A stretch of DNA of 64,000 bases from Escherichia phage A5-4: sequence record OP744025; one strand, 5' to 3'. A program made the translations under genes and the position numbers. This document shows positions 1,758 through 55,114 of the stretch, piece after piece. The notes under the pieces were generated by a model, which saw nothing but the letters and a program-made list of their open reading frames with translations, did not search any database and had not been told where the DNA came from. Positions within the stretch are counted from its first letter, which is position 1; each line of letters begins with the position of its first letter.

Positions 1758-1764
1758 AAACTTG

Positions 1765-1800
1765 TTGACGTTGGCTTGTGCCGTACCTATAATGGACGGC
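1765..1800 (+). promoter_or_regulatory. sigma70-like promoter TTGACG-N17-TATAAT with the -10 inside an inverted repeat
   Basis: TTGACG 1765-1770, TATAAT 1788-1793; inverted repeat gccgt...acggc 1780-1800. Confidence 0.55.
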
Positions 1801-17622: not shown

Positions 17623-17849
17623 TAAATGACCTCCTCTTTAAGAATCTCGCGATGATCTGCGCTGTACCATCCTTTCATCGTATTAACTACACCAACAGCC
17701 TCGCCGTATGTTTCAAATTTCGATTCTTCATGTGGGCCAATACGGACAGTTACCCAAAACAAGTTAAATACTTTACGATGAACTTCGTAATGCGTTGATT
17801 CACCTTTCCGAACTTTAACGATCCGAACTTTCATTATACCACCCTCCAA
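17622..17849 (-). CDS. hypothetical protein
   Basis: ORF track. Confidence 0.5.
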   Translation of the reverse strand: MEGGIMKVRIVKVRKGESTHYEVHRKVFNLFWVTVRIGPHEESKFETYGEAVGVVNTMKGWYSADHREILKEEVI

Positions 17850-18030
17850 AAGTCATAAATGCTTGATCAACCATATCTTTCCACTCAGGGTAGAGAGCAC
17901 AAATCATGATGTAGACCTCTTCATCAATGTCTTCACACTCCTCCATTTCCAAATACTCTACCACAGGTATGGGCAGAAGGCAATTTATTTCTTTACCCCT
18001 GAATTTCAGACCCTTAACTAATTTTAGCAT
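17815..18030 (-). CDS. hypothetical protein with ALYPE motif
   Basis: Contains EDIDEEVYIMICALYPEW, the motif shared by several neighbouring ORFs. Confidence 0.5.
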   Translation of the reverse strand: MLKLVKGLKFRGKEINCLLPIPVVEYLEMEECEDIDEEVYIMICALYPEWKDMVDQAFMTFGGWYNESSDR

Positions 18031-18031
18031 A

Positions 18032-18271
18032 TCAATCCTTAATCACGTAGAATCCTGATTCGTTCATCAGGACAAAGGACTTGCCGAAGAAATCCTTACG
18101 ATTATCCAAAACAAGGTAGAATCTTCGCTCAGACGAGAGGTGATGTGGGTCAGCCATATAGCTTACCCTCGCCGTCATGCCCTTATTCTTGCCCCTCGTG
18201 ATCCTTACCCTTGTACCATTCTCATATTTAATAGACACCGAACCTCCCTTGCAACTCTTTATGAACCGCAT
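18032..18271 (-). CDS. hypothetical protein
   Basis: ORF track. Confidence 0.5.
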   Translation of the reverse strand: MRFIKSCKGGSVSIKYENGTRVRITRGKNKGMTARVSYMADPHHLSSERRFYLVLDNRKDFFGKSFVLMNESGFYVIKD

Positions 18272-18731
18272 CTAATCCTGGCTTCAGTTTTGGAAGATCT
18301 CTTATAAACTCAGGGTATAGGATATTAACGAACTCAATCTCATCATCAGTAGGCTTTTGGGTATCTTCAAAATACTCGTCAAGATTGAATATCTGCCAAT
18401 CCTTATGCCTTGCCTTTCGTATAGCTATGAAGATTTCATTGTTGCAGGTAGCCATCCAGGAAATCCTAGAACCTTCACCTTTACCACTTGGTAGTGTGGA
18501 AACACAGAAGCGTGGTACTTCCCGAACCTTAAAACCCTCGTCATAGTATCCACGACCACGTTGAAATTTAAACTTGGTCTTCCCCACTCTCTGACTAATC
18601 TTCATGTCACGACGAAAGCTGTGGTCAGAAGTATAAATAAGTGGCCTAATGTATCCCGTATGACGGATCTTTTTCCAATTCCAATCTCGAATCAGTATCT
18701 CATAAACTTCCTTAAATGCTTCATACGCCAT
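18228..18731 (-). CDS. hypothetical protein with ALYPE-type motif
   Basis: Contains KPTDDEIEFVNILYPEF. Confidence 0.55.
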   Translation of the reverse strand: MAYEAFKEVYEILIRDWNWKKIRHTGYIRPLIYTSDHSFRRDMKISQRVGKTKFKFQRGRGYYDEGFKVREVPRFCVSTLPSGKGEGSRISWMATCNNEIFIAIRKARHKDWQIFNLDEYFEDTQKPTDDEIEFVNILYPEFIRDLPKLKPGLDAVHKELQGRFGVY

Positions 18732-18960
18732 CGAACGATTCCTTATCTAGAGCACCAACAATCTCGAACTTTGCTACGCCTAAAACAACCACATGACCCA
18801 AGGATTGTACACCTGTCCACGGAGTACCATTCCTCTTAGGTCGCTTACCAGTTACATCGCAGAAATCATTCCGCATTTCTGTTGCATCAAACAACTCGCC
18901 TTTCGGAAAAACATCTTTGAAGTCAGCGATCACGTTAAGACATTTCAGTTTCATATTCAA
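18721..18960 (-). CDS. hypothetical protein
   Basis: ORF track. Confidence 0.5.
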   Translation of the reverse strand: MNMKLKCLNVIADFKDVFPKGELFDATEMRNDFCDVTGKRPKRNGTPWTGVQSLGHVVVLGVAKFEIVGALDKESFDGV

Positions 18961-19297
18961 ACACTCCTCTCTCTAATCTTTGTTTGGCAAGTAACTCCCT
19001 TTGTGCTCTAAGTGGCATCCTGAAAAATATCACAACATTCTCCAAATCTGCCGCCCGTTTTTTAAGCTCTTTGGTGAATTTACCTTCCCGCTTAATTGCA
19101 TCGTATATCTCTCTATACTCATATTCGATAGAGTTGTCTTCAAATATCCGGTTGGCGACCATATTATCAATCTCCATACCGATAGCTTCAAAGCTATACC
19201 AGTCTACATGTTCTTCTGTAACAGGACCTCTTTCTTTGTACACTTGTCCAGTTATTTCATTAACTACGATCGTTGTCATTGGAGTATCTCCTTGCAT
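18935..19297 (-). CDS. hypothetical protein, FFRMP-motif paralog A
   Basis: Shares GMEI...FED.S and FFRMP motifs with the 19260 gene. Confidence 0.5.
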   Translation of the reverse strand: MQGDTPMTTIVVNEITGQVYKERGPVTEEHVDWYSFEAIGMEIDNMVANRIFEDNSIEYEYREIYDAIKREGKFTKELKKRAADLENVVIFFRMPLRAQRELLAKQRLERGVFEYETEMS

Positions 19298-19604
19298 TAT
19301 ACGGCATCCTGAAAAAGTTTAAAAGGTTGTAGATAGCAGCAACCCTCTCTCTTACCTTTTCGTCAGAGAAACAATCAGGACCTTCGCTGCAAAGTTTAAA
19401 ATCTATATCTTCCCACTCAGCGACCACAGATTCGTCTTCGAAAACTCCCTTTTCAAACATCATTCGAATCTCCATCTCCATACCCTTGAAGATTGTAAAA
19501 GTAACATCTTCAGGATCAAGGTATGATACATTGTCTATAAAGAGGCCCCTTTCGGGATAAATGACCATATGCAAAATAATCCTCCTGTGTCCAATATAAT
19601 CCAC
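19260..19604 (-). CDS. hypothetical protein, FFRMP-motif paralog B
   Basis: See paralog A; the DNA repeat ggcatcctgaaaaa occurs in both genes. Confidence 0.5.
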   Translation of the reverse strand: MDYIGHRRIILHMVIYPERGLFIDNVSYLDPEDVTFTIFKGMEMEIRMMFEKGVFEDESVVAEWEDIDFKLCSEGPDCFSDEKVRERVAAIYNLLNFFRMPYNARRYSNDNDRS

Positions 19605-19692
19605 CCAGAAGCGATTTTGACGAGGTTTTCTTAAGATAATGATAAATCACCTTACCTCGTCGTAGACCTCGTTAGAATCGTTCTGAGAGCGT

Positions 19693-19947
19693 TTAAGCCA
19701 TACCGAGCAAATTCATCTCTTTTAACAGGCCTTCCAAGGTAGCATTAAACAACACTGGCTTGCCTTCCTCCAGCTTATTGAAGAAGATTTCATGAGTTTC
19801 ATTATCTATCTTCTCCATCTCTTTTACCACTTCCTCTGACAAAAAGATATCACTACCTTTTAAACCAGGAAACATCAAGAGAATTGCAGTTTTTGCATTT
19901 GTTGCCCAACCCTGACCACCATTCAGACTGAATATCTTAATCATCAT
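19693..19947 (-). CDS. hypothetical protein
   Basis: Internal Met of track ORF 19693..20025 with RBS tggagg. Confidence 0.5.
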   Translation of the reverse strand: MMIKIFSLNGGQGWATNAKTAILLMFPGLKGSDIFLSEEVVKEMEKIDNETHEIFFNKLEEGKPVLFNATLEGLLKEMNLLGMA

Positions 19948-20245
19948 TTTCCTCCAAATTAACCAGTGCAGTTCGGACTTCAAGAAGAGTTGCTGCCCTT
20001 GCCTCGTTTCTCTCTGAGAAATCACGAATCATCATCTTGTACTTCATTTCTTCTTCAGTACGAAGAATTTTCTGTTCGATCAGTTTGTAAACTTGGCCTG
20101 CTCTTTCTGGAAACAACGCTGCAAAGAGATTCCAATCTTCCAATCTACCTTCGTAAGACTCTCCAGAAGTAAAGTACCGATCTCTTTCGATACTGTCAAC
20201 AAAATAGTAGCCGAATTCACCATAACGCCAAGTTTCATTTTTCAT
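19937..20245 (-). CDS. hypothetical protein, paralog of 20407..20646
   Basis: Shared YFTS...EGR.EDW...PE motif. Confidence 0.55.
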   Translation of the reverse strand: MKNETWRYGEFGYYFVDSIERDRYFTSGESYEGRLEDWNLFAALFPERAGQVYKLIEQKILRTEEEMKYKMMIRDFSERNEARAATLLEVRTALVNLEENDD

Positions 20246-20403
20246 TTGATGTACCGAGCAGCAGCCGTACCGATAAGGAAGCCAGCAGGAACTGCGACAA
20301 TGATAGCTTCAATCATTTTAAGATCTGCTGCAACACATGCTGCACCAACAACAACAGAACCAGCCCAGATAGCAATTACACGTTTCAAAAATTTAGTATT
20401 CAT
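20242..20403 (-). CDS. small membrane protein (53 aa)
   Basis: Hand-translated MNTKFLKRVIAIWAGSVVVGAACVAAD...; RBS aggaga; ATGA overlap with downstream start. Confidence 0.5.
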   Translation of the reverse strand: MNTKFLKRVIAIWAGSVVVGAACVAADLKMIEAIIVAVPAGFLIGTAAARYIK

Positions 20404-20406
20404 TCG

Positions 20407-20646
20407 TTAGTCTCCTGATTTTGTTAAGTTTTCTTTTATTTTTACGTACTCGATTAAAGATTTTGCGAGATCACCATCGATTTTCTCACAAACCATGAGT
20501 ATCTCTCTTACCTTTTCGGGATGAACAGATTCATAAAATTTCCAATCCTCTGTTCTCCCCTCTGTGGTTTGGGAAGTGAAGTATTCTTCTCTGTCTCGCT
20601 CCGGTAAGAGATAATATACAAGACTTAGCTTCCTCTCGTCAAGCAT
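20407..20646 (-). CDS. hypothetical protein, paralog of 19937..20245
   Basis: Shared motif. Confidence 0.55.
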   Translation of the reverse strand: MLDERKLSLVYYLLPERDREEYFTSQTTEGRTEDWKFYESVHPEKVREILMVCEKIDGDLAKSLIEYVKIKENLTKSGD

Positions 20647-20655
20647 TTTATCACC

Positions 20656-21027
20656 TTATTCGTAAAAAACCTTATCCGCTTGTTCTTTTAACCAACCCCG
20701 TCGGAAAGCACTCTTAAGTATTTCTGCCCACTTCGGATTTGCTGCCTCTAAGAGAAGTACCTCTTCTTTCTCTATGTTCATAGGATCAGCAAAGAAATCC
20801 AAAATCTCCTCATTGAAGACACCCTCTATCAAGATCCCTTTATATTTCAACGTCAAAAGTTTTGCCATAAAACCTTGAGATATTGCTCCCTCTCTATCAA
20901 TTGTCGTAGTTGGGGGATTTGGAAAAGGGAAACCCTGCATCGGTGTTGGTGATGCACCTGTCTTCACAAAAGTGTTCCCGCCAGTGTTATTGAAGAAACC
21001 TTTCATATTTTTATCGTACAATGACAT
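20656..21027 (-). CDS. hypothetical protein with ALYPE-type motif
   Basis: Contains FADPMNIEKEEVLLLEAANPKW. Confidence 0.5.
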   Translation of the reverse strand: MSLYDKNMKGFFNNTGGNTFVKTGASPTPMQGFPFPNPPTTTIDREGAISQGFMAKLLTLKYKGILIEGVFNEEILDFFADPMNIEKEEVLLLEAANPKWAEILKSAFRRGWLKEQADKVFYE

Positions 21028-21466
21028 TTTCTACCCTCTCTTGAATTTTTATCTCTGCCTCATCTAAAGCTTCCCCCATTGCAAGGATATACCTTGAAAT
21101 TTCAGGGAACAACGCTTCAAACATCTCTATCTCCTCTTCAAGTATATCTGTTGGATCGAAGAAATACTCTTCAAGGACTATTCGCTTTGTCACGATCTTG
21201 TTGCCGTAAGTAACAAAAACGAAACGATCAGGTTTCCCAATAGAATCTTTGGAGGTTCTCCATTGGAAAAGATGCCTGTTTGAACTTATGTTTATCCTTT
21301 TGTCAGCCTTGTCCAGCGGGATTCTAAAACTTACGGATGCTGACATTCCTTCGGATTGAGTCCATTTTTCACTCTTCTTAAAAATATTGTTCCGGTATCT
21401 GTTTTTACCTAAGGCATTAAAAGTCCACTGCCTGCTCAATCTCTCGATTATCTCTTTAGTTTTCAA
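21011..21466 (-). CDS. hypothetical protein with ALYPE-type motif
   Basis: Contains FFDPTDILEEEIEMFEALFPEI. Confidence 0.55.
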   Translation of the reverse strand: MKTKEIIERLSRQWTFNALGKNRYRNNIFKKSEKWTQSEGMSASVSFRIPLDKADKRINISSNRHLFQWRTSKDSIGKPDRFVFVTYGNKIVTKRIVLEEYFFDPTDILEEEIEMFEALFPEISRYILAMGEALDEAEIKIQERVENVIVR

Positions 21467-22014
21467 AACGGTATGTCCTCGTCAACAATAAATTTTATAG
21501 CATTCTTTACAGCCGCTTTATTCAGATGTTGAACACGCTGGAAGAACATTAGGTTCAAGTCAAGAAGAATATCATCATCTCCGTACAACGCCGTGAAAAG
21601 ATCAAGCTCTTCATCTGTCGGATGCGTGGGATTCTCAAATAAGCCCTCAAACACCACCTGGGCCTCATTTCTTTTAGCCAGCGTGGTTGAGTCTCGATAG
21701 ATATTTAATACCGTGTGTACATCATCTACGCTTAGGATTTTGACACATTCCAGATCTCCTGTGTCACCATCGAGATAAAGAGTGATCGCAGGAGTTGACC
21801 AATTTGATTCACTTATTGCATAAACGTAGATGCTTTTGCGATTACCAACTGCAATAGACTCTTCAATTTTCTTTTCTGCCGCCTTAAAGAAAGGTTGGTG
21901 TTTGATCCAATGCTCCCAACCAATCCAACGAGCACCCTTACCATACGCATTCAGCACATGATTCTCAATGTTACGTTTACTCTTTAAAACCTCCATAAAA
22001 GAAAAGCCAGCCAC
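21463..22014 (-). CDS. hypothetical protein with ALYPE-type motif
   Basis: Contains NPTHPTDEELDLFTALYGDD. Confidence 0.55.
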   Translation of the reverse strand: MAGFSFMEVLKSKRNIENHVLNAYGKGARWIGWEHWIKHQPFFKAAEKKIEESIAVGNRKSIYVYAISESNWSTPAITLYLDGDTGDLECVKILSVDDVHTVLNIYRDSTTLAKRNEAQVVFEGLFENPTHPTDEELDLFTALYGDDDILLDLNLMFFQRVQHLNKAAVKNAIKFIVDEDIPF

Positions 22015-22035
22015 CTTTCGGTGACTGGCCTAGAG

Positions 22036-22503
22036 TTAGCTACTAATCACCACGAATGCAGTAACTATAGCATACAGAAATCCAATTGCAACAAAAATTA
22101 TCATAATGGGGTCAGAGGTTACTCGCTTAAGTTTTCCTAAGAAAGTTGATCGGTATTTGTGTTCCTTCTCCATTTTGTTTATCAAAATGATGAAAGAGTT
22201 GATATGAATATCTTCAGCACTCTCTGCAAAAGGTGTGTACTTGAACGTACCTTCTGTATTTGCAACAAAGCTGCGATGATACTTTTTACCGTCATAACTT
22301 TCTATAAGAAGACCATCCTTTGTCACCCGATAACTAACTGAACGGAACTTGTCATAAAAAACGTATGCCCTGAATCCATCTTGATCGGGAACAGCCTTTC
22401 TGACGTAGCCGTCAAAAAACTCCAATCTCTTTCCAGAATTCAGTTCCAAGTTGTCAGCTAACATAGGGAGTTGACTTACGTATGTAAAGTACATAATGAT
22501 CAT
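22036..22503 (-). CDS. hypothetical protein with C-terminal TM helix
   Basis: ORF track; hydrophobic C-terminus. Confidence 0.5.
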   Translation of the reverse strand: MIIMYFTYVSQLPMLADNLELNSGKRLEFFDGYVRKAVPDQDGFRAYVFYDKFRSVSYRVTKDGLLIESYDGKKYHRSFVANTEGTFKYTPFAESAEDIHINSFIILINKMEKEHKYRSTFLGKLKRVTSDPIMIIFVAIGFLYAIVTAFVVISS

Positions 22504-22695
22504 CCTTCCACTAAGCTGAAATCATTTTATCATATTATGAAAAAATACAACAGCGAAGATCGGTCATGAACACTATGTTGTTAATTTTTACAACAGGACT
22601 CCAAAAAAGTATTTAAATCACTTAAATCGATTTTAATACATAGAAAATACCTATGGACCAGATCTGACCCATAGGCTATACCTTAATGTGAAATT

Positions 22696-23274
22696 TTATT
22701 CATTTCCCCGATATTTTTGAATTGCGATCGAAGTCCTTGGTTCAGCCAGTCCAGTTCCATATGCATACCATTTGCCAGTGAGTGTTTTTCGAGCACCGTA
22801 GGACCCAATCTCCATGTCGTCACAATAAACATCGTAACCGATCGGGGTCTTAACTAAAAAGAGTACATTACGAGGAATCCCTAAGAGGGTAAACATCGAT
22901 ATGGCATCTTTTGCGATCTCGTGAGAAATCTTCTCTGCATTCTTTTTACTGGTTGCACTTCTAAACAGTTCCATCTTTAAGAAGATATTGAAATGAATAT
23001 CATCAAGAACCATCTCATCACGGAAGCATGGGGTCACAGCCATCCAACTGCCATCTTCCAACTTCCCTTCTTTGTCGAGTTGGAGGAATGATTGCTCTGC
23101 GGAAGCCACTGCATATTTCCCGTTCTGGACAATTCGAAGATCAGTAACATCTTCGGGGCATGTATGATCCATAGCATCATCATCCACATAGCTTGGGACA
23201 ACCTTATCATTGAAACCTTTACATTTCCACCAACTGTGGGCATCAATAAACAATGTGAAGTCGATGTTTGACAT
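22696..23274 (-). CDS. hypothetical protein
   Basis: Internal Met (MSNIDF) of track ORF 22696..23304, removing overlap with the upstream gene. Confidence 0.5.
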   Translation of the reverse strand: MSNIDFTLFIDAHSWWKCKGFNDKVVPSYVDDDAMDHTCPEDVTDLRIVQNGKYAVASAEQSFLQLDKEGKLEDGSWMAVTPCFRDEMVLDDIHFNIFLKMELFRSATSKKNAEKISHEIAKDAISMFTLLGIPRNVLFLVKTPIGYDVYCDDMEIGSYGARKTLTGKWYAYGTGLAEPRTSIAIQKYRGNE

Positions 23275-23275
23275 T

Positions 23276-23779
23276 TTAGCCTCGCTTACCATTCTGGAAT
23301 GCACGTTTAGTAATTTTTGACATAACCATCAGGTCTTCTATTGAAGTGCTTGGATGATACTTATTCAGGTAGGCTTCCATAGCGCCGACCAGATCAGAAA
23401 GCTCTACCAACTCCATGATCTTACATTTTTGTTTAGCTGCATCCTTGAGTTCATCAAGTTCTTCTTGAATCTTAGTGATCTCTCCAAGCTCTCCGCGAGG
23501 GAAAGTATCCAGATGATAACCAGGTTTTTGTTCTTCAATGCCCTCATGTCCGACAACACGAAATTTTCCGGCAGCGAAACGCCAAACACCTTCAAAATAC
23601 ACAATGTAATGTTCCGACTCTGCAATGAAGATAGTGTCGAAATTTTTAAATTTAAAAAATCCTTCGATAAGATTATCTTCTGTACTGAAACTTCCTAAGA
23701 AGTTGAGTTCTTGCTCCGTATGAAATTCCATAACCATATTTTCGTTCTGGAGTTTCGTCAGCAATTTTAAAATTTTCAT
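23276..23779 (-). CDS. hypothetical protein, possibly MazG-like all-alpha pyrophosphohydrolase
   Basis: Internal Met with RBS aggagag; C-terminal ELGEITKIQEELDELKDAA...LVELSDLVGAMEAYL loosely resembles the MazG EExxE motif. Confidence 0.35.
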   Translation of the reverse strand: MKILKLLTKLQNENMVMEFHTEQELNFLGSFSTEDNLIEGFFKFKNFDTIFIAESEHYIVYFEGVWRFAAGKFRVVGHEGIEEQKPGYHLDTFPRGELGEITKIQEELDELKDAAKQKCKIMELVELSDLVGAMEAYLNKYHPSTSIEDLMVMSKITKRAFQNGKRG

Positions 23780-23790
23780 TTTCTCTCCTC

Positions 23791-24279
23791 TTATGGGCAA
23801 CACCGTGGAGATCTTCCACAGAAGAATTGCCAATTGGTTTCTGAGTCTTTGTAATTTACAAACCCTATCCTTCCGCACCCTTTCCCACTACAAACCGCTT
23901 CACGAGGATGATAGTCTATACTGCAAGAGTGGGGATGATCAAACGCTTCTCGTATTTCAACACAGAGTCTACTTAACCAAGCGAACATTTTTGGCATAGA
24001 AGCTTCAAGGAGTTTAAGTTCATCGACCGTAGGTTTGTCTTTCTCCATGAAGAAGTCATTTATCTCGGAAAACAAAATCACGTTTTGAACTATACCGCTG
24101 CTTACCTTGTAAGAGAACTCCTCAGTAAGTCTCACAGTAACTTCCTCTATCAATTCTTTTTCATTATCTTGATCTTTTGCTAATCTTTCTTCAATCCATC
24201 GGATAACGAAGAATCTTTCTCTCTGAACATCCATGTTCAAAGTATTGATTATTTTTTCATAGATTAGGTTTCCTTCCAT
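23791..24279 (-). CDS. hypothetical Cys-rich protein with ALYPE-type motif
   Basis: Contains KPTVDELKLLEASMPKMF; N-terminal cysteine cluster. Confidence 0.5.
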   Translation of the reverse strand: MEGNLIYEKIINTLNMDVQRERFFVIRWIEERLAKDQDNEKELIEEVTVRLTEEFSYKVSSGIVQNVILFSEINDFFMEKDKPTVDELKLLEASMPKMFAWLSRLCVEIREAFDHPHSCSIDYHPREAVCSGKGCGRIGFVNYKDSETNWQFFCGRSPRCCP

Positions 24280-25391
24280 ACCTTGTCTTGTGCCTCCAGG
24301 ATAAGTTTTTCAACAATCTTCAGATCTGTTTTCTTTGGTAAGCTCGATTGCTTATAAAGAACATCTGTGATCATTTTATCTTTTTCTTCAGCCCAGTCAA
24401 CAATTTCTTCATAGCGGTATTCACCATTTCGGATTGCGAGGAGTTCTTCAGCGTCTGGTCGATTAACTAAAACTTTACCTTCTGTGAGGATTTCTTCACC
24501 CATCCGAAGAAGCCGGACCAAATGCATAGCATGTTTAGTGTCGTAACCGAACTTCTCTTCCAGTTCATGACGCTTCTCGTTACGATTCTTAACCCATTCC
24601 CAATAGTTGTGGTGTTTCTCCTTGGCCCATTTATGATCGTCAGCACAATACTTAACAATCATCAGTGTCTTACCTCTTTTAACTTCATCTGGGATTTCTT
24701 CATAGTCCAGCTTACGGATAGAACCATCTTTGTTAAACATAGGTTCAACATTTTCACGACGATCCTCTACAACGCCGTAAATGTTACTGCCGTAATGAAC
24801 CAAAGTACAGAAGCCTTCCATGTTTTTAAATTTACGAACAAAGTCTTCGTACTTCAACTCACCTTCTCCGAGATAGCTCTGCACCAGACGGAAATAGTCA
24901 AATTGAGTTGGTGGCTCTTTTGGTTGCGGATTATTAATGTGTTTGTTGTGACCCTTGATCCGCTTTAACTGAGACATTGCATAACCACTGAAGCGAAATG
25001 CAACTTCACGAGACAGTAAGGAGTAGAAATGTTCTTTCATCTCTTTCCAAGCTTCGTGCTCGTACAATGTGGCTTTCGGATCAGTAAAACCCAGTTCAAT
25101 GATATTTGGGTTCATCTTCGAAAACAGTTGAAGGAAAGTTCCCAATTCGTAGATCTTGGCATCCTCTTCACCAGGGATGTTTAATTCAGTAACCTCTTTG
25201 AATGGGGTACGAACCACATTTGGGGTTGCAACAAAAACCCCACGGATATCAATATCACTACCTTCGTTATTCGTACCATACGCATGAGATCCTGCCAGAC
25301 TCAACATCAGTACCTTCGCCACGTCTGGATGATTTTCCATCTTCTCTACGATACTTTTTACCTTTCCAGCACTCACAACTGAATTTTCCAT
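24264..25391 (-). CDS. Pol-beta superfamily nucleotidyltransferase
   Basis: N-terminal motif LSLAGSHAYGTNNEGSDIDIRGVF (hG[GS]...D.D signature). Confidence 0.6.
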   Translation of the reverse strand: MENSVVSAGKVKSIVEKMENHPDVAKVLMLSLAGSHAYGTNNEGSDIDIRGVFVATPNVVRTPFKEVTELNIPGEEDAKIYELGTFLQLFSKMNPNIIELGFTDPKATLYEHEAWKEMKEHFYSLLSREVAFRFSGYAMSQLKRIKGHNKHINNPQPKEPPTQFDYFRLVQSYLGEGELKYEDFVRKFKNMEGFCTLVHYGSNIYGVVEDRRENVEPMFNKDGSIRKLDYEEIPDEVKRGKTLMIVKYCADDHKWAKEKHHNYWEWVKNRNEKRHELEEKFGYDTKHAMHLVRLLRMGEEILTEGKVLVNRPDAEELLAIRNGEYRYEEIVDWAEEKDKMITDVLYKQSSLPKKTDLKIVEKLILEAQDKVWKET

Positions 25392-29547: not shown

Positions 29548-30393
29548 TTATTTGCCCCCTTCTTTCGCCGCAGTGATGATCTGTTCAATTAACTCGTCAC
29601 GATAATAAACGTACTGTTCAACACCGAAACATTCCGCAATCTCGTCTAGTTCGTCGAGGTTGTACTCGTCAAAGTCTCGTGGGTTAAGAGTAAAGATGTT
29701 GAATTTTTTGGCGTAGCCTTCGTCGAGGACGATTTCAAATTCTCCCTCTCCGATTTCCTTCGCATCATCAACATCACTCGATTCGATTGACCCTTCAACC
29801 TTAATCCCCCCTGTATTTTGTTGATCGGCTTCCATTTGCTTTTTAATTGCTTCATCTTCAGCGGTCAAACGGGCTTGCATCTGAGAGGAAGTGAAGTAAA
29901 TTTCGCCAGCACGATCAAACAGTTCAACGAGTTCATCTTCTGTCATAACACCCTTGTACAGATCGTAGTATTTCTCTTTGAACAGGTCTTTGTAGAAATC
30001 GCTACGTTTAAATACCAGCGCCGAGTCACCACCCATACTCATCTGAACGTTGTGGAACATATAATGAGAACCTGGACGACAAATTCGAACATGACCAGAT
30101 AAGAAGATCATTGTTGCAGCACTTGCCACTTCACCAATGCCGTGTGTCACAACAGTCGCCTTAGCTTCAGAGATCGCTGTCATGTACATATCTGCGATAT
30201 CACAATAACCACCGCAAGAAGTAATGTATAGATTTACAATATCACCTTCTGGTGCTGAACGAATCAGATCAACAGCCTCAATATGTGCTTCAGGTGAGTT
30301 GTGCAGATCGGTAACATAGATACGCCAATCGTTAGAAGTTACTGGAGATACCCAAATGTTTTTTGCTGGACCATTCATTACGATTTCTTCCAT
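29548..30393 (-). CDS. ClpP-like serine peptidase with acidic C-terminal tail
   Basis: ClpP-like segments NLYITSCGG, GEVASAATMIFLSG, HYMFHNVQ. Confidence 0.45.
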   Translation of the reverse strand: MEEIVMNGPAKNIWVSPVTSNDWRIYVTDLHNSPEAHIEAVDLIRSAPEGDIVNLYITSCGGYCDIADMYMTAISEAKATVVTHGIGEVASAATMIFLSGHVRICRPGSHYMFHNVQMSMGGDSALVFKRSDFYKDLFKEKYYDLYKGVMTEDELVELFDRAGEIYFTSSQMQARLTAEDEAIKKQMEADQQNTGGIKVEGSIESSDVDDAKEIGEGEFEIVLDEGYAKKFNIFTLNPRDFDEYNLDELDEIAECFGVEQYVYYRDELIEQIITAAKEGGK

Positions 30394-45473: not shown

Positions 45474-46017
45474 GTTTATCGATAAACGCTTTCACATAAA
45501 GAGTTATCATCTCTCCTTTATCCAAACCCTCATCGATAACTACATTGTACCTCAATAAAGCGTTCGTTGCAATTGTTTCTTTCTTTAATCTCTTCAAATA
45601 TTTTTTCAGGTCAGCAACAATCTCACCATGAAACTTTCTTGAAGAGTAATCCCTTTCGAGATAGTCAGCCATTCTACGCAGAACTTCACTCATTGTCAAG
45701 TCTGTTTTATCTTCCATGTGCTTAGACCAAAGTTTTTGTACACCACCTTCGAAAAGGTTCAGTGTGCTTCCAATAACACCTCTGACCTTTCCGTCAAAGT
45801 GATCATGGTCTAAACAAGGCTTCTCCATAACTTCACCCAGTATAGCACAAACTCCTTGTTGGTCAAGCAATATTTCATCACGATATTTTGCTATTTCTTT
45901 TGACCCACTTACCCAAAGATCCTTATTTAGTTTCACACGGATAGGTGTAGTCGCCTTATCCTTTGCTGTGAATAGAGGCTTCTTTGACCGCCGCTTCCTC
46001 ACTCTCGGTACTCGCAT
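45439..46017 (-). CDS. endonuclease VII-like protein
   Basis: CLDHDHFDGKVRGVIGSTLNLFEG parallels T4 endo VII HLDHDH...GKVRGLLCNLCNAAEG but the second Cys pair is missing. Confidence 0.5.
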   Translation of the reverse strand: MRVPRVRKRRSKKPLFTAKDKATTPIRVKLNKDLWVSGSKEIAKYRDEILLDQQGVCAILGEVMEKPCLDHDHFDGKVRGVIGSTLNLFEGGVQKLWSKHMEDKTDLTMSEVLRRMADYLERDYSSRKFHGEIVADLKKYLKRLKKETIATNALLRYNVVIDEGLDKGEMITLYVKAFIDKLEEGYLYESRS

Positions 46018-46624
46018 GTACTCCCTCCAAGGCTAAAGCCATTAAGAACTCACCATGTGTTGGTTCAAGAGGGTTTTCAAAATACTCTTCCATTCCGAAA
46101 CGATAAAGTGACATTGGGAAGTTTATACTACTAAACAAGCTGTTGTCAACATTATTTTTAAATTCCGGTGGGACGTTCGTATCAAATTCCCTAAAGAATT
46201 CAGATCGACTAGAGTTTATAAAAACCCTTAGAGCATTATCAAAAATTGGATTACCTTTTTGCTTAGTCAGATAAAGCAATTCTTTTAGCGAAGCCTTATC
46301 AGAAACAGACTTAAAAGAATATCCACTAATAATGATCTCGTCAAAACACATACCTCTAACTTTTTGCCAAAAAGACCACTGTGCAGAACTGATCGTCTGA
46401 ATGTGCATGTTCAGCTTAGACCGTTCATTAAACAGGTTTATATCGTAACCACTACGATCTTTCTGATAAGAACCAAACCCCAAGCTATTTGCAGTGTGCT
46501 TCAGTTTAGCAATGAAATCCCCCCTTTCGAGGGTATTCCAACAGATCACTAATTTCTTACTTTGGTAAAACTCTTCCGATTCGTATCGTTCAATAACCGT
46601 TTCGTTCAAGGTAGCATCTCCCAA
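45956..46624 (-). CDS. hypothetical protein
   Basis: ORF track; overlaps the neighbour so the true start may be internal. Confidence 0.45.
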   Translation of the reverse strand: MGDATLNETVIERYESEEFYQSKKLVICWNTLERGDFIAKLKHTANSLGFGSYQKDRSGYDINLFNERSKLNMHIQTISSAQWSFWQKVRGMCFDEIIISGYSFKSVSDKASLKELLYLTKQKGNPIFDNALRVFINSSRSEFFREFDTNVPPEFKNNVDNSLFSSINFPMSLYRFGMEEYFENPLEPTHGEFLMALALEGVHASTESEEAAVKEASIHSKG

Positions 46625-49582: not shown

Positions 49583-50134
49583 TTAGTATGCCTCACATTT
49601 ACCAATCATATTCATAGCTTCAGAAACATCGATAATCATATCGGTTGCTTCGTCCCAAGCTTTCCCCAAGAGATTCTCACCATACCAGAAACTTTCATCA
49701 TCTACCATAGGGTGATTCTCATCCATACCGATCCCCCATATACGATCTCTCGGAGAAGCCTCTACAAACTTTAAACCCTTTTTACGGTAACCTACCGCAA
49801 GTTCACGGAGATTACCATTATCACACATACGACTATACACTAAACGGGTTACAATGTTAAATTTATTTTCATCCCAAACTGCCTGATCAAAATCCTTAAC
49901 TTTACGACCTAGCCTTTTAGCACCTTGTGGAGTTACAGATTTAAGGATTCTTTCCGCTGAAGCTTTGTCACCGAAAAGCATAGCCTTTTCATACATCATG
50001 TAATGCTCACCTGTGTGGAAATAAACCCCTTTCATCTTCTGGTCGAAGTTTGAAAACGGAGAGATCTCCTGGTAATGATTACTAAAAACATCACGAAAAG
50101 AATAAAAGAACACATGTTTATCAGTGACTCGCAT
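49583..50134 (-). CDS. NADAR-domain (YbiA-like) protein
   Basis: Motifs FFYSF, FSNF, GEHYMMYEKAMLF, LGRKVKDFD, WGIGMDENHP typical of NADAR/DUF1768; start set at internal Met. Confidence 0.6.
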   Translation of the reverse strand: MRVTDKHVFFYSFRDVFSNHYQEISPFSNFDQKMKGVYFHTGEHYMMYEKAMLFGDKASAERILKSVTPQGAKRLGRKVKDFDQAVWDENKFNIVTRLVYSRMCDNGNLRELAVGYRKKGLKFVEASPRDRIWGIGMDENHPMVDDESFWYGENLLGKAWDEATDMIIDVSEAMNMIGKCEAY

Positions 50135-50270
50135 AAAAACTCCTATAGATCTAATGCAGATATTGAAATCAAGAATAGCACTACCGAAAGTAATCCGTCC
50201 GGCGTACTGAAAAATCCAATCCAGCACGCCCTTGTGAACAGGTAGAATGCCAGTATTAAAACGATAACCC

Positions 50271-52258: not shown

Positions 52259-52337
52259 CGTTTCATATCCTCTTCGTTGGTTGATATAAGGATTATACAG
52301 GATTTGTGGTGGGTGTCAACAGGCAGATAAAGAAAAA

Positions 52338-54599: not shown

Positions 54600-54652
54600 T
54601 TTAATCTCCTTTCGTTTAACTTGGGGCCATTATACATGACCCCTTATCATTG

Positions 54653-55114
54653 TCAACAGTCTTTATAAGTTTCTAGTGCAACTTTACGTGCTTCATCCTT
54701 TTCAATCTCAAACTTAGATCGCTTGTCCTTTCTTGAAGCCTTGTTACGGCGTTTAATGATCCGACGGCAAGCATGATAAAGGCGTGTACCTTCGTAATCA
54801 TTCATCCAGAACAGATCGCCATTTACAAAAAGGCTGTCGGAGAAAATACCACAAACCTTTTCAATGTAAGTAACCTTGCCTGTGACCGTATCAACAATTG
54901 TATAATCAACATACCAAAGATCATCATTATCCTCGCATGGGTCTTCATGACCTTCAGGAACAAAAACTCCAGAATGTATCTCAAACCGAGGAGATCCTTT
55001 ACGAATCAACTTCAAGATCTTACCTGCTGGCTTACGAGTCATCAGCACAGGAGCGCCCAAAATTAAAGAAAGGTAAAGCGCAATCCCCACAACAGCGATA
55101 ATTAAAGCTTCCAC
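54653..55114 (-). CDS. hypothetical protein with N-terminal TM anchor
   Basis: N-terminal MEALIIAVVGIALYLSLILGAPVL. Confidence 0.55.
   Translation of the reverse strand: MEALIIAVVGIALYLSLILGAPVLMTRKPAGKILKLIRKGSPRFEIHSGVFVPEGHEDPCEDNDDLWYVDYTIVDTVTGKVTYIEKVCGIFSDSLFVNGDLFWMNDYEGTRLYHACRRIIKRRNKASRKDKRSKFEIEKDEARKVALETYKDC

Follow-up and report, generated by a model that had tools for sequence, protein, structure and literature searches.

Nine small proteins of Escherichia phage A5-4 share a motif predicted to be the core of an acidic helical module

A cluster of small genes encoding proteins that share a short motif lies in a 64,000-nucleotide stretch of Escherichia phage A5-4 (sequence record OP744025), the whole of which we call the window. 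The minus strand carries all genes from ~10 kb to 58 kb of the window, in an array with nucleotide and DNA metabolism functions that includes NrdD, a CCA-adding enzyme, a ClpP-like protein, a DNA ligase, a polymerase exonuclease subunit, a RuvC-like resolvase, endonuclease VII, a NADAR protein and an RlaP-type nucleotidyltransferase. The motif cluster sits immediately downstream of a nucleotidyltransferase gene and upstream of genes for RCC1-like virion proteins. Between 17800 and 24300 the window is 92–96% identical in nucleotide sequence to five Escherichia phages (A7_1, A73, W70, UPEC06 and LTH01), whose taxonomy places them, and hence the window, in the genus Septuagintavirus of the subfamily Vequintavirinae. 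A sequence-only reading had proposed that eight open reading frames (ORFs) of this region share the motif; all eight are present, packed in 6.5 kb of the minus strand and with the translations it quoted, and we found a ninth copy outside the range that it covered (Table 1). Genes of the family are named here by their lower coordinate.

Table 1 The nine motif-bearing genes of the window, followed by other features discussed in the text
Feature	Position (strand)	Product (aa)	Motif residues	Motif nucleotides	Motif sequence	Orthologues and relatives	PHROG match (E)	Remarks
17815	17815–18030 (−)	71	23–49 (core)	17884–17964	VVEYLEMEECEDIDEEVYIMICALYPE	W70_231	no match in PHROG search	
18228	18228–18731 (−)	167	117–141	18309–18383	LDEYFEDTQKPTDDEIEFVNILYPE	CR3 gp173, phiTE_113	phrog_12307 (4e-31), cross-match phrog_12686	N-terminal part basic, net +12
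19937	19937–20245 (−)	102	21–47	20105–20185	RDRYFTSGESYEGRLEDWNLFAALFPE	relative of CR3 gp183	phrog_15823 (0.004)	
20407	20407–20646 (−)	79	19–44	20515–20592				minimal member; motif inside predicted five-helix bundle
20656	20656–21027 (−)	123	75–99	20731–20805	ILDFFADPMNIEKEEVLLLEAANPK	orthologue of CR3 gp185; large-scan relatives P0017, P0019, P0020, P0029	phrog_21419, phrog_30227, phrog_13666	N-terminus Gly/Pro/Thr-rich
21011	21011–21466 (−)	151	98–122	21101–21175	LEEYFFDPTDILEEEIEMFEALFPE	CR3 gp187, phiTE_123, Kashira_01720	phrog_12686 (4e-19)	N-terminal part basic (net +14), beta-rich; closest of all to consensus
21463	21463–22014 (−)	183	122–146	21577–21651	FEGLFENPTHPTDEELDLFTALYGD	CR3 gp188, phiTE_124	phrog_12009 (1e-36)	C-terminus ...VDEDIPF
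23791	23791–24279 (−)	162	73–97	23989–24063	INDFFMEKDKPTVDELKLLEASMPK	CR3 gp193, phiTE_129	phrog_12113 (2.5e-40)	conserved Cys/His-rich tail after motif
45956	45956–46624 (−)	222	178–202	46019–46093	MEEYFENPLEPTHGEFLMALALEGV, quoted also as MEEYFENPLEPTHGEFLMALALEG	large-scan orthologue P0028	phrog_12410 (1e-19)	ninth member
SSB-tip-like end of 21463	21466–21483 (−)							
Cys/His-rich tail of 23791	~23791–23960 (−)							C-terminal third of product
RCC1-like virion protein genes	12846–16377 (−)	~380–414 each						three successive ORFs
Paralogue pair lacking the motif	18935–19297 (−), 19260–19604 (−)	120, 114						adjoining, slightly overlapping
Terminator-like hairpins	22031–22004 (−), 22676–22649 (−)							12-bp stems, then T-run
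Membrane-protein gene	22036–22503							
tRNA synthetase-like gene	22696–23304 (−)	202					phrog_4806 (5e-56)	
Nucleotidyltransferase gene	24264–25391							
ClpP-family gene	29548–30393 (−)	281				CR3 gp205, phiTE 141		PF00574, E 4e-8
NADAR-domain gene	49583–50227 (−)	214						PF08719, E 6e-37
Certrevirus-type early promoters	1763–1793 (+), 52292–52321 (−), 54629–54658 (−)							exact matches

The signature has two parts. The first, h-x-[ED]-[ED]-[YF]-F, is followed by 4–7 residues that often contain D/N-P-x-x-P, and the second reads (P)T-x-[ED]-E-h-x-h-h-x-A-L-[YFH]-P-[EK]. The core of ~20 residues described earlier does recur; the conserved unit is longer, however, as a hydrophobic heptad-like, amphipathic pattern runs on for ~15 residues past the P-E, giving ~45 residues in all. 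MAFFT aligns the eight clustered motif segments cleanly, and the net charge of the motif is negative in all nine members (−2 to −10). What surrounds the motif varies widely: it is preceded by 18–177 residues with a net charge from +14 to −6 and followed by 5–65 residues, so that it is internal in most members.

Acidic helical composition recurs by chance more than most, and the resemblance might have been an accident of low-complexity acidic sequence, or have reflected a repeat in the DNA or RNA whose translations merely look similar. A loose regular expression for the motif matched six times, always within the eight ORFs, whereas residue-shuffled ORFs averaged 0.004 matches (never more than one; 500 shuffles). 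In leave-one-out searches with hidden Markov models (HMMs), each omitted member ranked 8th or 9th of 1109 six-frame ORFs at E 4e-10 to 1.3, 17815 being the weakest (E 1.3, rank 9), and the top non-training match of the eight-member HMM was 45956 (E 0.012). A stricter test omitted the entire orthologous subfamily and searched 4663 six-frame ORFs from six phage regions. It recovered 21011 at E 4e-8, 18228 at 5e-6, 21463 at 4e-5, 45956 at 2e-3, 20656 at 0.03 (0.028; its CR3 orthologue at 1e-3) and 23791 at 0.17 (its phiTE orthologue at 1e-4). At the nucleotide level, identity among the nine copies is 0.51, 0.60 and 0.28 at codon positions 1, 2 and 3, the last being near the ~0.25 expected of unrelated sequences, and where two copies share an amino acid they use the identical codon in only 93 of 223 pairs. 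Neither a nucleotide repeat nor recent gene conversion nor a signal embedded in the RNA or DNA is compatible with this pattern; as judged from the codons, selection is on the protein and not on the DNA. With orthologues conserved across genera as well (see below), we regard an artefact of either kind as having a negligible probability, and the worry that the motif might be an acidic pattern of no statistical weight is laid to rest.

The nine proteins are not uniformly dissimilar outside the motif. Two pairs are full-length paralogues, 18228 with 21011 (25% identity over the whole length, with phrog_12307 and phrog_12686 matching each other's members) and 19937 with 20407 (BLASTP E 1e-9), and for these the earlier description of the ORFs as otherwise dissimilar fails; between subfamilies it holds. 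BLASTP with the motif masked found nothing between subfamilies, and when family profiles were compared by hhalign the alignment was confined to the motif in each case: 21011 with 21463 over 27 columns (E 1.4e-6, probability 90%), 21011 with 23791 over 32 columns (E 8e-4) and 21463 with 23791 over 21 columns (E 5e-4). Because the subfamily profiles share the motif columns only, the proteins have a module in common rather than demonstrable full-length homology. By these sequence comparisons the motif is the sole detectable similarity joining at least six robust subfamilies. The copies thus form a lineage-specific paralogous family, with nine members on the same strand, significant similarity limited to the module and colinear orthologues in phages CR3 and phiTE.

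The same subfamilies occur well beyond Septuagintavirus. A tblastn search with 21011 found relatives in 31 phage records, and those at 29–34% identity belong to Certrevirus (CR3, CR8, CR9, phiTE, CB7 and the POP phages) and to Serratia phage Kashira. The motif HMM detected several members each in CR3, phiTE and Kashira, on the coding strand only and in the syntenic region. Gene order is colinear between Septuagintavirus and CR3, with 23791 corresponding to gp193, 21463 to gp188, 21011 to gp187, 20656 to gp185, 19937/20407 to gp183 and 18228 to gp173. BLASTP of 17815 against its positional counterpart, CR3 gp171, gave no similarity. Orthologue alignments of the 18228, 21463 and 23791 families place the motif columns among the most conserved; in that of 21463 they are mostly invariant, against 38% identity overall. 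Nucleotide similarity between Septuagintavirus and Certrevirus is at most ~30% according to the paper describing the genus, and since the same subfamilies stand in the same order at this distance, the expansion is older than the genus split. From gene order and sequence, then, it is an old expansion, every subfamily of which is retained in both genera. An expanded gene family, as suggested before, is the closest description of these genes, yet the picture of rapid divergence around one helix needs amending: only the module is shared, and the expansion is ancient and stably kept. CR3 also has an extra member, gp189 (18999–19505 of the CR3 region analysed, L002; ..ALFFNQYALTRDDMAFFQMTYPDEFKAFREQW..), with no counterpart at that position of the window; the two genera thus differ in copy number. 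Within the cluster, an adjoining pair of ORFs that lack the motif, 18935 and 19260, are themselves paralogues (BLASTP E 9e-11) with a common GMEI...FED...FFRMP pattern; on this similarity they are a second tandem duplication, and duplication is locally active.

More distant relatives are few. In each of the rV5-like phage TH18 and the Seunavirus SSE121, a single candidate occupies the corresponding genomic position and matches the first half of the motif only, at non-circular E values of 0.009 and 0.006; on sequence and position these are probable members of the family. In a filter-free HMMER scan, 22 of 1.84 billion cluster representatives reached E ≤1e-3. Twenty-one of them are true relatives, all orthologues of window subfamilies; the 22nd, P0031, is a false positive arising from a translated repeat (ALYPTWFRWN, five times). 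IMG/VR searched with the 18228-family alignment gave only Certrevirus-like contigs (CR3, phiTE and one CR9-like uncultivated virus genome). As far as these searches reach, the module scarcely occurs outside Vequintavirinae.

No named domain accounts for it, in agreement with the sequence-only reading: Pfam, NCBIfam, PADLOC and PDB sequence searches gave no supported match. NCBIfam and PADLOC returned no family at E ≤0.1 for the nine window proteins, and a PDB sequence search with the module proteins found no match. Two Pfam families came up below their gathering cut-offs and are chance matches. DUF7675 (PF24723) matched 20656 alone, at ~14 bits (E 0.04 and 0.009) against a cut-off of 27 bits; the orthologues P0017, P0020, P0029, P0013 and P0012 do not match it, so that it hits one of 19 module sequences. 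DUF1266 (PF06889) matched 17815 alone, at 15.6 bits (E 0.019), also under a 27-bit cut-off. The window subfamilies already have entries in PHROGs, labelled hypothetical proteins, from CR3-like phages and their relatives (12307/12686, 12009, 12113, 15823, 21419/30227/13666 and 12410), but no annotation is attached to these groups, which are kept apart; the sole match among them is between 12307 and 12686, and the shared module is not captured. Nor do the Septuagintavirus and CB7 genome papers describe a link of these groups, at least seven in number, through one module. The individual genes are thus known as PHROG unknowns, while the unifying module is new, lineage-specific and absent from Pfam. 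A multigene family of this kind is common in large phages and would not by itself surprise a specialist.

We predicted the structures of two members with AlphaFold2. The model of 20407 (19-row alignment) has a mean predicted local distance difference test (pLDDT) score of 86.9 and a predicted template modelling score of 0.72, with residues 21–50 above pLDDT 90. It consists of five helices (residues 4–13, 16–22, 28–41, 43–55 and 58–77), and the motif extends from the end of helix 2 (..EEY) through the loop at 23–27 and helix 3 to the Pro-initiated helix 4. The model of 21011 is poor overall (mean pLDDT 58.9, the N-domain being badly predicted), with the motif block at pLDDT 75–88. Its local arrangement is that of 20407: a strand (92–97), a short helix (98–101, EEYF), a loop and two helices (110–119 and 121–150). 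The common helix arrangement that had been proposed as a check is thus seen in both models. The module comprises a short helix or turn ending in an aromatic pair, a loop of 4–7 residues, a Thr-capped amphipathic helix and a Pro-initiated second amphipathic helix; conserved across the family are the aromatic pair, one hydrophobic helix face, the T-x-x-E capping box and the P-E helix start. According to these models, the motif is the core of a small folded acidic helical module and not a disordered linear peptide. Foldseek found no fold match for the 20407 model in the PDB (best E 2), and a BFVD fold search returned only the protein's own orthologue. Death-fold or CARD-like helical bundles recur among its weak structural neighbours.

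These models bear on the suggestion that the motif is an exposed short linear docking peptide, of the PIP-box (clamp-binding) type or binding some other hub, that tethers its carriers to the replisome or recombination machinery. The h-x-[DE]-[FY]-F first half does resemble PIP-type motifs at their hydrophobic core, it is the only half kept by the rV5-like and Seunavirus candidates, and 21463 ends in an SSB-tip-like DEDIPF. The ninth gene, furthermore, lies among resolvase, endonuclease VII and exonuclease genes, flanked by the RuvC-like resolvase gene on one side and the endonuclease VII gene on the other. Set against this are the extent of the conservation, ~40 residues, the predicted ordered helices at high pLDDT and the internal position of the segment in most members. 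When compared with short linear motifs as a class (3–10 residues in a disordered context), the motif is conserved over ~25 residues plus ~15 of hydrophobic pattern and is helical at pLDDT 75–94 in the two modelled members. When compared with the sliding-clamp-binding motifs (Q-x-x-[LIM]-x-x-[FY]-[FY], or bacterial QL[SD]LF), the h-x-x-[FY]-F part occurs in most members but the conserved Gln is lacking and the motif is internal and structured. The few ORFs checked near 45956 encode nucleases, a kinase and the polymerase exonuclease subunit and no clamp, which was not a systematic clamp search. A unit of ~45 residues predicted as helix–loop–helix–helix in two members is hard to reconcile with a linear docking or targeting peptide, a reading that we do not favour and consider improbable. 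Because the conserved residues are fold-building, any contact with a partner would probably be made through a folded surface and its negative charge rather than through a free peptide.

Nor do the proteins appear to be virion components. Mass spectrometry of W70 virions identified 28 proteins, and W70_216–231 are not among them (PMC11370258). These W70 genes are the orthologues of the motif genes, which are non-structural and are read in the same direction as the genes for nucleotide and DNA metabolism. The same virion data include W70_237–239 (PMC11370258), the counterparts of the RCC1-like ORFs at the end of the non-structural array; the one ORF of the three that was scanned (12846–13988) has an RCC1-like repeat domain. 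One signal carried by small proteins that are otherwise unrelated, with virion proteins encoded just downstream, would fit the logic of a capsid-targeting or injection signal, by which such proteins are packaged for delivery with the DNA. Given the virion set without W70_216–231 and the position of the genes in a nucleotide-metabolism array, we hold this to be very improbable indeed.

The transcription of the cluster can be described in part. The CB7 paper reports sigma70-like early promoters mainly in a block of short ORFs and does not describe the motif family. The Certrevirus-type early promoter (TGTTGAC-N(16-20)-TATAAT) has three exact matches in the window, against 0.01 expected. A scan for sigma70 promoters and terminators across 16–26 kb gave nothing above shuffled expectation except the two strong terminator-like hairpins that flank the membrane-protein gene, and these subdivide the cluster into putative transcription units. 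Between this gene and 23791 lies a gene whose product matches a PHROG labelled histidyl tRNA synthetase. Pfam class II synthetase cores match it weakly, it is far below full synthetase length, and related phages label it seryl or histidyl, inconsistently.

The explanation that we favour is that the genes arose by old tandem duplication, followed by divergence or replacement of the flanking parts, and that the retained module would serve as a common handle for protein–protein interaction or oligomerisation. The paralogues might use the handle to associate with themselves or with one another, or all might dock through it on a single partner from the phage or the host. The parts joined to it would include the basic, beta-rich N-domains of 18228 and 21011, the Cys/His-rich tail of 23791, the SSB-tip-like tail of 21463 and possibly, in rV5-like phages, a HigA-like helix-turn-helix (HTH). 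We give this explanation an even chance of being correct.

Several observations weigh against it. That the module interacts with anything is purely inferred. Nearly all of the positions conserved family-wide are structural, and the solvent-side helix positions differ between subfamilies, which is equally compatible with a folding nucleus and with a binding surface. The AlphaFold alignments are shallow (15–19 rows), since the word-indexed homologue searches found few proteins (3 with the motif profile, 3 with the 21011/18228 profile and 10 with the 19-sequence profile). The Certrevirus-type early promoter has no match within the motif cluster. Finally, membership is weakest, on sequence, for 17815 and for the 19937/20407 pair. 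With entire subfamilies omitted, 17815 was recovered only marginally (E 2.1), as was the 19937/20407/gp183 subfamily (E 1.8–79, 79 being the value for 20407), and the link of 19937 to other subfamilies is weak once its own is left out (E 4.9). Taken as single targeted tests, these marginal E values correspond to p of ~4e-4 to 0.02.

The conservation of structural positions would also fit a motif that is a relic, that is, the retained folding nucleus of one ancestral small helical protein whose descendants have no common partner and unrelated functions. Consistent with a relic, it is the helix caps and the hydrophobic or aromatic residues that are conserved, with variation at the exposed positions of the helices; the cluster shows tandem duplication, and the minimal member 20407 is predicted to be a self-contained helical bundle. 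The flanks, however, have no detectable homology even when profile is compared with profile. Their differences in size, charge and predicted secondary structure look more like those of a single module attached to different domains, and folding alone does not call for a motif charge that is negative throughout. We judge a structural relic to be the main rival, albeit on the unlikely side.

The favoured interaction handle can be extended to an adaptor panel, in which the members would each deliver their own recognition or effector part to a single hub, possibly the phage ClpP-like protease, possibly the machinery of replication and recombination together with the SSB interactome. The panel would be a phage counterpart of the PRANC and F-box families. 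Poxvirus ankyrin proteins of these families carry a small docking module on variable bodies, and the likeness lies in the many paralogues, a helical module of ~40–50 residues (C-terminal PRANC/F-box-like in poxviruses) and a variable remainder. The analogy would be functional only, as we found no sequence or fold relationship; Pfam gave no F-box or PRANC match, and to our knowledge bacteria have no SCF system. We think such a panel rather unlikely. The ClpP-family gene invites a separate reading, in which the module would be a tag for timed turnover that a protease reads as a degron or delivery handle. This gene is conserved in the same array, being kept in CR3 and phiTE (its Pfam match covers part of the Clp fold only), and many members with one module and different putative target-binding parts would suit such a scheme. 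Known Clp degrons and adaptor tails, however, are short and terminal, whereas the module is internal and folded. A turnover tag strikes us as very unlikely. As a single protein, 20407 also resembles the small acidic helical host-takeover proteins of phages, of which T4 AsiA, T7 Ocr and lambda Gam are examples: it is small (79 residues), acidic (isoelectric point 4.9), predicted to be all-helical with five helices, non-virion, and encoded among what are probably genes of the early or middle class.

Three of the parts found with the module are described further here. The product of 21463 ends in ...VDEDIPF, close to the C-terminal tip of E. coli SSB (DDDIPF), and is the only window ORF with a DEDIPF-type end. 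Among its relatives the orthologue P0018 ends in DEDIPF and the more distant P0027 in EEIPF, and the CR3 and phiTE orthologues have no such tip. The tail may be an SSB-tip mimic on a protein lacking the oligonucleotide-binding (OB) fold. An SSB-like protein of phage Bas52, with an FDDDIPF tip, is a recently reported trigger of the DRT10 defence system (bioRxiv 10.64898/2026.04.29.721553). The tail of 23791 (HPHSCSIDYH...CSG.GC...VNY...C....RCCP) is near-invariant across Septuagintavirus, CR3 and phiTE and on its own matches phrog_19749 and phrog_14060; from its Cys/His pattern it is probably a metal-binding module. TH18 peg154 (P0021; 17057–17797 of the TH18 region, L005) has an N-terminal HTH of the HigA antitoxin family (TIGR02607, E 8e-16, above cut-off) and the half-motif near its C-terminus (MKEMFLDWTQPTEKEVDML); it may represent a phage-encoded mimic of an antitoxin with the module attached. 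Elsewhere in the array, the product of the NADAR-domain gene is a candidate counter-defence protein because NADAR enzymes remove ADP-ribosylation from DNA.

At least seven separate phage protein groups of "unknown function", ~9 genes per genome, are here united as one module family restricted to Vequintavirinae, a subfamily whose members are under characterisation for therapy and biocontrol. If the module does no more than nucleate folding, it would provide a new domain definition useful for annotation and an example of phages building small proteins from varied parts and one stable mini-fold. If it binds one partner, that partner would offer a first hint of function for roughly half of the genes of this 6.5-kb block and might point to a host-takeover or anti-defence hub.

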